From the sequence record PQ478073.1: DNA of 64,000 bases; one strand, 5' to 3'. The translations under genes and the position numbers were made by a program. The number at the start of each line of letters is the position of its first letter. The stretch's first letter is position 1. This document shows, piece by piece, positions 3,027 through 18,836 of the stretch. The notes below the pieces were generated by a model. It was given only the letters and a program-made list of their open reading frames with translations. It ran no database searches and was not told the DNA's origin. This DNA is from a phage.

Positions 3027-3284
3027 ATGATGATGAGTGAACATAGTGATGTGCTTAAAAAGATTTTAAAGGAACTTGATGGTGAGTTTAATGTCACAGA
3101 AGAAGAATATCAGCATTGGAAGAAAGGTTTTGAACAACTAACCGAGTATGATAAAGTGTTCAATATGATTGGCGTAATTAGCCAGTACTTACTTGGTGGA
3201 GGACGTGCAAGTGCTTCAATTCTGGCATCTGCAATCATCTGTACATCACGATGGTGTGATGAAAAAAGTTTGGAAGATTTCTAA
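3027..3284 (+). CDS. hypothetical protein (start uncertain, run of in-frame ATGs)
   Basis: ORF to 3284; several ATGs 2997-3033; a tiny SD-preceded ORF 2963..3040 overlaps. Confidence 0.4.
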   Translation: MMMSEHSDVLKKILKELDGEFNVTEEEYQHWKKGFEQLTEYDKVFNMIGVISQYLLGGGRASASILASAIICTSRWCDEKSLEDF

Positions 3285-3336
3285 ATAAGATGCTATAATA
3301 TATTATAGTACCTTAACAATATAAAAAGGATTTTAT

Positions 3337-4197
3337 ATGAAACCTATCCGAGTACTTTCTCTTTTTAATGGAATGAGTGTGGGATATATGGCATTGCAAG
3401 ATGCTGGTATCCCAGTTGAAAAATATTATTCATCCGAAATTGACAAGTACGCAATAGCTGAATCTCAAGCTAACTTTCCTGATATTATCCAATTGGGTGA
3501 TGTAACTAAGTGGAGAGAATGGGATATTGAGTGGGATAAAATAGATTTATTAATGGGTGGTTTCCCATGTCAAGCCTGGTCAGTTGCAGGTAAACAGGGT
3601 GGTTTAAATGATATACGTGGGCAGTTATTTTTAGTAATGGTTGAAATTTTTGATCATATCAAAAGTCTCAATCCTAACTTGAAATTTCTGTTTGAAAATG
3701 TTAAAATGAAGGAAGATTTCAAAGAATACATTAATAGTATTTTAGGAATCACGCCAGTACTGATAAACTCCCAGCATTATACGCCTCACTTCAGGCAGAG
3801 ATATTACTGGTACAGTACTGATAAGCTTTTTATACCACCTGCATTATCCAATGCACCTAAACTTCAAGATATTATTGAAGATGGTTGGTACACTGACAGA
3901 ACCGCTTCGTACTGTATAGATGCTAACTATTTTAAAGGTGGTGATTGTAACCAGTACTTTAATAAATCCAGACGACAATTGGTGTTTCGTGACCCAGTGA
4001 TCAGTCGTCAATATCTATTAGAGAATGGCAAAAGAAATATTGACTATAGACACTTAAGTGTAGTAGAATGTTGTAAATTACAGGGTGTTCCTGAAGATTT
4101 CTTTAAAGTGTCTAGTAAGACACAAGCATACAAAATGCTTGGGAATGGATGGACTATGCCAGTTATATCACATTTACTAAGAGAGATATTCTTTTGA
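3337..4197 (+). CDS. DNA (cytosine-5)-methyltransferase
   Basis: 286 aa; motif I LFNGMSVG, motif IV FPCQAWSVAG (catalytic PCQ), motif VI ENV (LFENVKM), C-term GNGWTMPV. Confidence 0.85.
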   Translation: MKPIRVLSLFNGMSVGYMALQDAGIPVEKYYSSEIDKYAIAESQANFPDIIQLGDVTKWREWDIEWDKIDLLMGGFPCQAWSVAGKQGGLNDIRGQLFLVMVEIFDHIKSLNPNLKFLFENVKMKEDFKEYINSILGITPVLINSQHYTPHFRQRYYWYSTDKLFIPPALSNAPKLQDIIEDGWYTDRTASYCIDANYFKGGDCNQYFNKSRRQLVFRDPVISRQYLLENGKRNIDYRHLSVVECCKLQGVPEDFFKVSSKTQAYKMLGNGWTMPVISHLLREIFF

Positions 4198-4679
4198 ACA
4201 TAAACAAATACCAAACTTATATAAAACGTACAGAAAGTTTCAAACGGCTGGCTGTAAAATCTGAATTAGAATTTAATTTGTATTATCCTAATATTGGTGA
4301 TGAGGTATTTTATTGCTCTCATTCAAAGAATGGAACTTTACTTAAATCGGGTAAAGGAACTATTGTTGATATGACCGCAAATTTCAGAGGTAAACTTAAT
4401 GTAATGTACAAAGTACAAGATTCAAGTACTGAGTGTATTCATGAAGTGATGCATAACATACCTGCATATCCAAAAGATTTTGTTCAGCTAATATCTCGAA
4501 GGGAGAAACCTATGTTTTATTGTGGTTACGACAAATTAACCAAACAAATTATTCCTAATACTATGGGAAAATTTAAAAGTGATGTGAAATCTGAACTTGA
4601 AAAGAAATTTGGCACGTCATGGGAAACTGAAAACGAGTTTATCGAAATTCGTTTAATTGAAATTACTATACTTGAATAA
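4149..4679 (+). CDS. hypothetical protein (start uncertain; may begin at TTG 4194)
   Basis: ORF 176 aa overlapping MTase 3' end. Confidence 0.45.
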   Translation: MDYASYITFTKRDILLNINKYQTYIKRTESFKRLAVKSELEFNLYYPNIGDEVFYCSHSKNGTLLKSGKGTIVDMTANFRGKLNVMYKVQDSSTECIHEVMHNIPAYPKDFVQLISRREKPMFYCGYDKLTKQIIPNTMGKFKSDVKSELEKKFGTSWETENEFIEIRLIEITILE

Positions 4680-4683
4680 TTAC

Positions 4684-4708
4684 AAATCCACGCATTGCGT
4701 GGATTTTT
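4684..4708 (+). terminator. intrinsic terminator
   Basis: 10-bp stem AAATCCACGC/GCGTGGATTT, loop ATT, then TTTCA. Confidence 0.7.
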
Positions 4709-13052: not shown

Positions 13053-13388
<336 letters not shown>

Positions 13389-13389
13389 A

Positions 13390-13572
13390 ATGACACACGA
13401 AGAATGGATGTCCAAACAGCATAAAGAACATGACTGCTTTGGGAATGGCATTCGTCAGGTACATTATGATATATTAAGAGATGAAAATCTTTTCAGGTCA
13501 TATGTTTTGGATACCAGAAAACCCTGGTTTATATGCGAACTGGCATTTAGAAAGTCAAATAATCAAAACTAA
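13390..13572 (+). CDS. MTHEEW-family mini-protein
   Basis: paralog; upstream DNA TTAATTGNACTGGATACATAAA shared with 12871 copy. Confidence 0.55.
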   Translation: MTHEEWMSKQHKEHDCFGNGIRQVHYDILRDENLFRSYVLDTRKPWFICELAFRKSNNQN

Positions 13573-13588
13573 ACAAGGAATACAAAAA

Positions 13589-13807
13589 ATGAAAACAACT
13601 TTATTTGAAGTTATTCAATCATTAAAACCTGAAGATGAGGTTCAAGTACTACTACATGGTTATCGTGTAAAAGGTACTGTGGTTTTAGTCAATGATACAA
13701 CATTGGTTATTACAGAAACAAACCCATATGATAGTAATCAACTTGCCAATATCCATATCGATATCACTGGAATTATTGGTGTCGGTGTATCTAAAACACT
13801 TGCATAA
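13589..13807 (+). CDS. hypothetical protein
   Basis: start moved to ATG 13589 (MKTTLF), SD AAGGAA. Confidence 0.45.
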   Translation: MKTTLFEVIQSLKPEDEVQVLLHGYRVKGTVVLVNDTTLVITETNPYDSNQLANIHIDITGIIGVGVSKTLA

Positions 13808-13860
13808 ATCATTAATTCATTATATAATGATTATCACTGGTTCTAGATGAGGATAATATT

Positions 13861-14133
13861 ATGCATTTTGAAAAATTCAACGTAAATCGTAACACACGCA
13901 TTGAAGTTCTTTATGAAACTCAAGACACCATTAGTATTCGTACAAATAGTGGGGATGTATATCATGACTGTACGATTGGCTGGGAACAGGGAAGAACGCG
14001 TAGTGCAGTATTTGATAATTATCGCTTTTATCAAGGAGACACTACGATTTGGCCTGAATACGTAGAAGATATTGCGTTTGAAGATGAACATAAAGATGAA
14101 TTTATCAAATTTAATCCTCAAACTGAATCATAA
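13861..14133 (+). CDS. hypothetical protein
   Basis: ORF 90 aa; SD GAGGA. Confidence 0.5.
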   Translation: MHFEKFNVNRNTRIEVLYETQDTISIRTNSGDVYHDCTIGWEQGRTRSAVFDNYRFYQGDTTIWPEYVEDIAFEDEHKDEFIKFNPQTES

Positions 14134-14150
14134 ATAATGGGACATCACAT

Positions 14151-14266
<116 letters not shown>

Positions 14267-14270
14267 AAAT

Positions 14271-14372
<102 letters not shown>

Positions 14373-14377
14373 AAACC

Positions 14378-14538
14378 ATGACGCATGAAGAATGGATGAA
14401 TGACATTAATTTTAGATATGCAGGTTTCGGTAACTGGAGAAAGTATCATTGGGAAATCATGTCAGACCCAGCAGAATACGATAAACTTATAAACCATGAA
14501 GCGTATCCGTGGTTCTTTATTGAAATAATGGTACGAAC

Positions 14539-14542
<4 letters not shown>
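14378..14542 (+). CDS. MTHEEW-family mini-protein (54 aa)
   Basis: paralog immediately after tRNA pair. Confidence 0.5.
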
Positions 14543-14704
<162 letters not shown>

Positions 14705-14713
14705 AAAAAAAGA

Positions 14714-15126
<413 letters not shown>

Positions 15127-15193
15127 CTAAATAATTCAGTACTGAGGATATTAATATGTTTAAAGATGAACGTCCAGATTTGTAAAAAGTACT

Positions 15194-15221
15194 TGACTAA
15201 ATAGTTTAGTACTGATATAAT
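15194..15221 (+). promoter_or_regulatory. promoter cassette TTGACT-N16-TATAAT with CAGTACTG-like box
   Basis: copy of 14714 cassette; followed by ~360 nt lacking a convincing ORF. Confidence 0.55.
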
Positions 15222-15585
15222 GAATTCCACAATCAGACGTATATGGTGTAAGTTACGTCGATGCAATCCAGAACAAGATCTCTGGTACTCTAGGAAGTGG
15301 TGAATGTTAACCTAGACGGGTTTGATAATTGGACGATAGGCAATTATTACTTGACTAGCAGGTTGAAACTAGAGGTGACAGTCCTTCACCAAACTGGAAA
15401 ACCGGATGGACTTTTATTTAAAAGGGTAAGGCGTGGAAATATGTTTACAGAAGTTGCTTTTAGTAGCCTGTACGCCCCACGTCAAGGTAGCCGAAAGGCA
15501 AGTTAAAACGGATGGTTATAAAGCTGAATTAACAGCGGCGTTTAAAAGCGTCACCATCCATTTTTTTTTAATTAAAGTTGGTGAT

Positions 15586-15964
<379 letters not shown>

Positions 15965-15975
<11 letters not shown>

Positions 15976-15994
15976 TTTTCAGTACTGATATAAT
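15965..15994 (+). promoter_or_regulatory. putative promoter (TGGACA-N18-TATAAT) for tRNA-Ser(GCU)
   Basis: -10 hexamer 7 nt upstream of tRNA 5' end. Confidence 0.45.
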
Positions 15995-16000
15995 TAATTT

Positions 16001-16237
<237 letters not shown>

Positions 16238-16310
16238 CTTTTTAATTTAAAAGTACTTTACTGTAGTGTTTAGTACCGTATAATGTAAACAAAAGGATAA
16301 AATAAAACTC

Positions 16311-16835
<525 letters not shown>

Positions 16836-16857
16836 TTAAAAAATCAGTACTTTATTA

Positions 16858-17242
<385 letters not shown>

Positions 17243-17255
17243 TTCACATGATATA

Positions 17256-17931
<676 letters not shown>

Positions 17932-17943
17932 CGGGTATTATAA

Positions 17944-18353
<410 letters not shown>

Positions 18354-18354
18354 T

Positions 18355-18489
<135 letters not shown>

Positions 18490-18491
18490 TA

Positions 18492-18548
<57 letters not shown>

Positions 18549-18549
18549 A

Positions 18550-18581
<32 letters not shown>

Positions 18582-18633
18582 TACCAAGCAGCTTGAAGAA
18601 CTTTGTAGTGCTGCACCTATGCCGACTCTTGGC

Positions 18634-18734
<101 letters not shown>

Positions 18735-18746
18735 TATCTTACTTCT

Positions 18747-18836
<90 letters not shown>

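Follow-up and report, generated by a model that had tools for sequence, protein, structure and literature searches.

A putative orphan DNA (cytosine-5) methyltransferase with a minimal target recognition domain in an Asteriusvirus-type jumbo coliphage

The stretch of phage DNA analysed here (record PQ478073.1, 64,000 nucleotides, hereafter the window) carries on its plus strand an ATG-to-TGA open reading frame (ORF) of 286 codons at 3337–4197, TGA included, exactly where an earlier reading of the sequence alone (the original prediction) had placed it. A Shine-Dalgarno-like AAGGA, read directly from the sequence, lies 6 nt upstream of the ATG (3326–3330). Judged from its sequence, the product is very probably a functional orphan DNA C5 methyltransferase dependent on S-adenosylmethionine (AdoMet), and one that is already known. 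With 132 bits (cut-off 22, E 4.1e-38) the 286-residue protein scores as a C-5 cytosine DNA methylase of Pfam PF00145. It also reaches 120 bits for NCBIfam TIGR00675 dcm (cut-off 100.65, E 1.6e-34), and the match to PHROG 116 'DNA methyltransferase' covers its whole length (residues 1–285, E 1e-60). All catalytic motifs are present in canonical order, namely I (F.G..G), IV (PC), VI (ENV), VIII (R.R), IX and X (GN), and they contain residues that are invariant in all 40 sequences of an alignment of the window protein with 39 homologues of 49–87% identity. Motif I, the AdoMet-binding loop LSLFNGMSVG (residues 7–16, 3355–3384), has invariant L7, S8, L9, F10, G12 and S14, and E34 and D55 do not vary either. 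Motif IV (GGFPCQ, 3556–3573, codons checked) provides invariant G75 and P77 and the catalytic nucleophile Cys78, likewise invariant. It is followed by motif VI (E120-N121-V122, encoded by GAA AAT GTT at 3694–3702, invariant) and by motif VIII (RQRYYW, 3793–3810), in which R153, R155, Y157 and W158 are found throughout. Motif IX, RHLSVVECCKLQGVP (4048–4092), with invariant R238, L240, E244 and C245, and motif X, KMLGNGWTMPVISHL (4132–4176), with invariant G269-N270-G271, complete the domain. The claim of a complete enzyme with all diagnostic motifs is thus borne out by the profile matches and the invariant residues.

The target recognition domain (TRD; residues 159–237, 3811–4047) is short, with 83 residues between motif VIII and motif IX. 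In the alignment it consists of a conserved core, residues 187–214 (DR.ASYCIDANYFKGG..QYF.KSRRQ), and a short variable segment, residues 217–237. Absence of a TRD had been named beforehand as a finding that would overturn the assignment; it was checked, and core and variable segment are both there. Most relatives in PHROG 116 have an insertion of 30–100 residues after the TRD core. The insertions of relatives, up to ~100 residues long, fall in the variable segment and are missing from the window protein, which is the minimal form. The AlphaFold2 model of the protein has a mean predicted local distance difference test score (pLDDT) of 93.2 and a predicted template modelling score of 0.90, and the pLDDT is 87–96 over residues 161–240. 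The ratio of nonsynonymous to synonymous substitution rates (dN/dS) in comparison with the orthologue of phage fEgEco12 is 0.079 (dS 0.34, dN 0.027), and it is ~0.06–0.07 in comparison with phages RaK2 and GAP32, both of which are saturated comparisons. These values indicate strong purifying selection, and a pseudogene or a gene in decay is ruled out by the dN/dS of 0.08.

The original prediction held that no restriction endonuclease lies next to the gene, and this was confirmed: searches of the four ORFs upstream and the four downstream gave no match to a nuclease or defence family of Pfam, NCBIfam or PADLOC. The adjacent cognate endonuclease that marks a Type II restriction-modification system was therefore not recognisable in these eight neighbouring ORFs. 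Public annotations around the gene list only hypothetical proteins for many kb, and the nearest annotated nuclease, an HNH gene, is ~27 kb off. Around it, small genes run in one direction over a long block that looks like an early region and that also encodes a sigma factor, a T7 gp0.7-like kinase and seven tRNAs.

In catalytic-domain fold and in sequence the protein is closest to DNMT3, and according to the structural model the DNMT3 catalytic domain is its closest structural relative. The motif I loop LSLFNGMSVG aligns with VLSLFDGIATG of DNMT3, whereas motif IV reads PCQ in the window protein and PCN in DNMT3. DNMT3A, DNMT3B and DNMT3C possess PWWP and ADD regulatory domains, both of which the window protein lacks; its methyltransferase domain starts at residue 2 and leaves no room for them at the N-terminus. 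It thus consists of the catalytic domain alone, DNMT3-like in size and shape, a trait common to the whole clade. The catalytic loop differs among orthologues. It is GGFPCQAWS in the window and GGSPCTDVS with an 8-residue insert in RaK2 and some metagenomic orthologues, the latter sequence being comparable to GGSPCNDLS of DNMT3. These orthologues also differ from the window protein in the variable part of the TRD, and the specificities of the RaK2 and window enzymes may therefore not be identical. The region from the catalytic loop to motif VI (residues 75–140, window 3559–3756) is a mosaic among close orthologues (clusters P0005, P0019, P0022, P0024 and P0026, and RaK2) with three loop types, GGFPCQAWS, GGSPCQGLS and GGSPCTDVS with the 8-residue insert. 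The P0005 protein, for example, is 96% identical to the window protein in residues 1–74 and 141–220, and 59% identical in residues 75–140. This pattern suggests that the loop segment is a module swapped by recombination.

A 3-kb stretch around the gene is 99.5–99.9% identical to the Escherichia phages E9.1, CRJP21, G17, Sharanji, SP27, phAPEC6, slurp01 and 121Q, and 98.9% identical to PBECO4. According to the G17 record and published papers, E9.1, 121Q, G17, PBECO4 and their kin are jumbo myoviruses of ~350–370 kb in the genus Asteriusvirus. By this sequence identity the window belongs to a jumbo coliphage of Asteriusvirus (121Q/PBECO4 type) and not to a T-even phage; with T4, Asteriusvirus phages have only distant T4-type replication genes in common. 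The RaK2 paper (PMC3622015) reports that no homologues of deoxycytidylate (dCMP) hydroxymethylase or glucosyltransferase were found, and the same holds for such genes in the CBB paper (PMC5259590). None is annotated in the span of E9.1 that matches the window, a statement that rests on annotation and not on a dedicated whole-genome profile search. DNA with glucosylated hydroxymethylcytosine would resist digestion by ordinary restriction enzymes. Ten such enzymes, however, cut the virion DNA of fEgEco12 as predicted in silico, and the methyltransferase of this phage is 95.5% identical to that of the window, with only two TRD positions differing. The contrast with T4 and its hydroxymethylcytosine, on which the original prediction had built when it called an orphan C5 methyltransferase unusual for a T4-like genome, is consequently inapplicable: the genome is that of an Asteriusvirus, papers on related phages report no genes for hydroxymethylcytosine, and the DNA of a relative is cut normally. 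What likens the window enzyme to T4 Dam and to T-even hydroxymethylcytosine is that a solitary phage-encoded methyltransferase is presumed to counter restriction. Its chemistry differs from both, since T4 Dam methylates adenine at N6 and the T-even phages replace the base by way of dCMP hydroxymethylase.

The claim of an unusual arrangement is unsupported in another respect, as the family is common in phages. We found matches in at least 253 phage records (tblastn, E<=1e-20) and at least 8000 protein clusters (E<=1e-10), and the host genera include Escherichia (Asteriusvirus and phi92-like phages), Vibrio (including ICP1), Bacteroides, Cellulophaga, Flavobacterium and others. Solitary C5 methyltransferases of the family are accordingly common among phages. 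Those of PHROG 116, such as phi92 gp043 and the enzymes of the BASEL phage EmilieFrey, of ICP1 and of Bacteroides, Cellulophaga and Vibrio phages, are homologous over the full length at 33–52% identity. They show the same motif order and conserved TRD core and are, like the window protein, without a partner endonuclease. Closer orthologues are G17_00216 (100% identity), 121Q gp91 (99.3%), fEgEco12 g455 (95.5%), GAP32_390 (75%) and RaK2 gp194 (64%), all at the syntenic position, also in GAP32 (from Cronobacter) and RaK2 (from Klebsiella). All of these, as well as the phAPEC6 and PBECO4 proteins, are annotated as DNA (cytosine) methyltransferases, and the Asteriusvirus copies show essentially no difference from the window gene. 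The gene is accordingly already known: dozens of GenBank records annotate it, and at least five papers refer to it as a methyltransferase presumed to be protective. The phAPEC6 paper (PMC7247149) names N6-adenine and C5-cytosine methyltransferases, 'suggesting protective DNA methylation'. Much the same view of a putative protective methylation is taken for UE-S1 (PMC12805682), Sharanji (PMC11895373) and CBB (PMC5259590), and the RaK2 paper (PMC3622015) likewise infers an anti-restriction function. In the BFVD library of viral structures the matches are only to unnamed or generic methyltransferases.

Automated annotation has given the gene more specific names. It is called 'Modification methylase HaeIII' or 'HpaII' in LT603033 (slurp01), in OR545507 (Sharanji) and in cluster P0005; two records annotated by Prokka label it 'haeIIIM', and the Sharanji paper (PMC11895373) repeats the HaeIII label as a functional indication. 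The window protein has the superfamily and the catalytic motifs in common with M.HhaI, M.HaeIII and M.HpaII (E ~1e-17), but an identity with M.HaeIII or M.HpaII is unsupported by sequence or structure comparison. These labels are unfit for inferring methylation of GGCC or CCGG.

The genomes around these genes are strongly depleted in restriction sites. For counts beyond the window we used the related phage ECO103 4-12-1 (L003–L009, 350 kb), together with fEgEco12 (L002) and RaK2 (L011). The tetranucleotide GCGC does not occur in the 64-kb window (~25 expected), where none of the 373 GCG trinucleotides is followed by C, nor in the 350 kb of ECO103 4-12-1 (160 expected), in 41 kb of RaK2 (13.9 expected) or in 43 kb of fEgEco12 (14.8 expected). 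Phi92, on the other hand, has 3 sites where 4.9 are expected, so that it carries a homologue of the methyltransferase and yet keeps GCGC. The absence thus characterises the Rak2-like lineage; it does not follow the methyltransferase family, and a link between the two is rejected. Eighteen palindromes of six base pairs have no site in the 350 kb (observed/expected), among them CTGCAG (0/54), CCATGG (0/37), GGATCC (0/32), GGTACC (0/32), TCCGGA (0/24) and GCATGC (0/19), and CAGCTG occurs once where 34 sites are expected. GATC stands at half its expectation (106 versus 212 in the window, 600 versus 1203 in the 350-kb genome), although an N6-adenine methyltransferase has been reported for Asteriusvirus phages. 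Rak2-like phages evidently rely on what looks like an extreme purging of restriction sites.

For the window enzyme we assume the standard C5 mechanism on the basis of its family. The target cytosine would be flipped out and attacked at C6 by Cys78 of motif IV, while Glu120 of motif VI and Arg153/Arg155 of motif VIII would keep the base in place and activate it. From AdoMet, held by motifs I–III and X, the methyl group would pass to C5, and the short TRD would read a short DNA site. The gene presumably stands behind a sigma-70-like promoter, for which we have a candidate at 3270–3299 on the plus strand (TTGGAA, an 18-nt spacer and a TG-extended TATAAT; 10/12 matches, TG present), in a two-gene unit with a small downstream ORF. 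This unit may be closed by a G+C-rich palindromic hairpin on the plus strand (4684–4706), a terminator candidate whose counterpart in G17 (L001 8188–8204, corresponding to window 4687–4703) is annotated as a terminator. Methylation of replicating phage DNA at a short site would block host enzymes that cut unmethylated copies. It would complement what appears to be the main strategy, the wholesale removal of restriction sites, and the methyltransferase would most plausibly cover a short and frequent site whose removal is not possible. On balance we lean towards such an anti-restriction role. It was one of two functions offered by the original prediction and is plausible, and the five papers cited above propose it as well; the other, an epigenetic function, stands only as a rival.

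Several points weigh against this reading. Methylation that produces purine-5-methylcytosine (5mC) would attract McrBC in Escherichia coli K-12, the host of Sharanji. Phi92-like phages, whose homologue is 51% identical, are reported to be exceptionally sensitive to restriction by the systems examined, each of them adenine-based. The promoter evidence is weak, because promoter-like matches are equally common in shuffled sequence (12 found versus 12.1 expected). SmaI, NruI and ClaI are blocked by CpG methylation, SexAI by methylation of the Dcm type and HindIII by AG5mCT. Digests of fEgEco12 virion DNA with these five enzymes were nevertheless reported as 'identical to predicted'. They argue against a general methylation by the Asteriusvirus enzyme of CpG, CCGG (inner C), CGCG, TCGA, CCWGG or AGCT, and would therefore leave the enzyme with another target or the DNA only partly methylated.

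As to the site that is methylated, which the original prediction had called unknown, no published target was found for the Asteriusvirus orthologues or for the other phage enzymes of PHROG 116 named above, and our literature search yielded no methylome or target report for Asteriusvirus, phi92-like phages, ICP1 or GAP32. For RaK2, the published paper (PMC3622015) states, in both cases as 'data not shown', that digestion succeeds only with enzymes that Dam, Dcm, CpG and EcoKI methylation do not affect, and that methylated CpG was detected in virion DNA by bisulfite sequencing. The bisulfite result fits a DNMT3-like enzyme. The reports on RaK2 and fEgEco12 need not conflict, because the orthologues differ in loop and TRD. 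The genome has a CpG odds ratio of 0.74–0.76 and a TpG/CpA value of 1.23, which fits the pattern expected from deamination of 5mC, a pattern that other causes can give as well. The best lead for the target is a CpG-containing site. ACGT is the sole palindromic tetranucleotide with CpG that survives the constraints of the fEgEco12 digests and of presence in the genome, and it alone among the NCGN contexts is undepleted in Asteriusvirus genomes (1.01). In 41 kb of RaK2 the value is 0.81, and we give ACGT low weight as a target because the pattern is not reproduced there. Sites at normal frequency include GCNGC, CGCG, TGCA, ACGT, GTAC, CACGTG and GTGCAC. Deriving the target from such frequencies was tried and is not decisive, since protection and deamination would shift the abundance of a methylated site in opposite directions.

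A further reading joins the CpG lead to the structural likeness. According to Jurkowski and Jeltsch (PMC3227630, 2011), DNMT3 arose somewhere within the prokaryotic methyltransferases. The window protein might be a minimal 286-residue phage enzyme of DNMT3 architecture that methylates a short CpG-containing site, as the RaK2 bisulfite result hints, and its very large phage clade could comprise the nearest relatives, among prokaryotic viruses, of the eukaryotic de novo methyltransferase domain. We consider this doubtful as a whole.

Unlikely, too, is the epigenetic alternative, in which the enzyme would methylate a recurrent element of the phage such as GTAC, AGTACT or CAGTACTG, or else host DNA, and thereby time transcription or host takeover. 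Such elements do exist. GTAC is found at 1.4–1.5 times its Markov expectation, AGTACT occurs 182 times in the window (~8 times the expectation from base composition), and the 8-bp palindrome CAGTACTG occurs 38 times in the window and 204 times in the 350 kb, where base composition predicts ~3.5. Copies of CAGTACTG are distributed over all codon phases and non-coding DNA, and the motif is present in RaK2 as well. A subset lies between the -35 and -10 elements of early promoters (TTGACt-N-CAGTACTG-TATAAT; e.g. at 14728, 15980, 16872, 33468 and 48059), and the over-represented GTAC-type motif is also found within the methyltransferase ORF, at 3755 and 3813. CAGTACTG could be an operator or another signal at the DNA level. 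No report of this excess or of the GCGC void was found in the searchable literature, which is not proof of novelty. With most restriction sites already removed, moreover, protection may be less needed. Nothing ties the enzyme to GTAC, however, and the elimination of GGTACC (0/32) and CGTACG (0/12) would be needless if GTAC were protected by methylation. The same protein family is found in many unrelated phages, and a 9-kb stretch of phi92 is not enriched in GTAC (22 versus 30.9 expected). GTA5mC is, in addition, purine-5mC and hence a substrate of McrBC, which likewise counts against a regulatory mark at GTAC.

We regard it as very unlikely that the methyltransferase and the small ORF behind it form a restriction-modification or toxin-like cassette, in which the ORF would encode an unrecognised nuclease or specificity partner. 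This ORF on the plus strand, annotated without a function, would overlap the methyltransferase by 49 nt if it began at the annotated ATG (4149). Its most distant homologue begins at position 16, which corresponds to TTG 4194 of the window, and from this alignment the ORF probably extends from 4194 to 4679, its start overlapping the methyltransferase stop as TTGA. Such an overlap suggests translational coupling, so that the two genes are probably coupled. A cassette would be in agreement with this overlap and with the candidate promoter and hairpin, which bracket only these two genes. It would also agree with the fact that parts of the ORF remain directly 3' of the methyltransferase in other phages: its middle module recurs in GAP32_391 (32% identity, E 7e-7), a gene overlapping the GAP32 methyltransferase, and its C-terminal module in the 69-residue RaK2 ORF195 (33%, E 2e-11), just 3' of the RaK2 methyltransferase. 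The genomes are collinear, however, and adjacency is expected without a functional link; we read the retained modules as conserved synteny and not as a sign of a partner nuclease. Profile searches gave no Pfam or PDB relatives of the ORF, nor did PADLOC or NCBIfam point to any nuclease, and its AlphaFold2 model is poor (pLDDT 48.6). Its homologues form four clusters only, all Asteriusvirus-like, whereas the methyltransferase family has at least 8000. RaK2 possesses only the fragment-sized module of 69 residues, and the phi92 homologue has unrelated neighbours.

It is highly improbable that the target is absent from the phage genome (e.g. GCGC), so that only host DNA would be marked, for instance to turn the host McrBC on its own chromosome. 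The complete absence of GCGC from 350 kb (0 versus 160) and from 41 kb of RaK2 would suit this idea, and methylation-triggered killing of E. coli by McrBC is documented (PMC2614495). However, 18 six-bp palindromes are absent too, and ordinary restriction avoidance explains the void. The similarity to M.HhaI, the GCGC enzyme, is confined to the N-terminal catalytic region (residues 4–124) and stops short of the TRD, phi92 has a homologue and keeps GCGC, and RaK2 virion DNA itself is reported to contain 5mC (PMC3622015). Scarcely credible, finally, is that the protein is no DNA methyltransferase in vivo but a Dnmt2-like tRNA cytosine methyltransferase acting on phage tRNAs, a carboxymethyl-transferring variant or an inactive remnant; the CFT tripeptide of Dnmt2 was not found in the 286-residue sequence.

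Two further features of the window are recorded here. On the plus strand, at 13075–18826, ARAGORN found a cluster of seven tRNAs, namely Gly-TCC, Ser-TGA, Ser-GCT, a 'Ser' of 92 nt with the anticodon ACT, Met-CAT, Asn-GTT and Thr-TGT. This is one more than listed in this region for the closest annotated relative. On the minus strand, 57178–63888 holds a run of at least six paralogous-looking ORFs of 200–400 residues, which correspond to the 'regulator of chromosome condensation' genes of E9.1 (RCC1-like repeats; L014 7063–15101).

Apart from the question of its target the methyltransferase gene is ordinary, and it matters little as a discovery. To explain what the enzyme guards against, one must begin with the sites that these genomes still contain.

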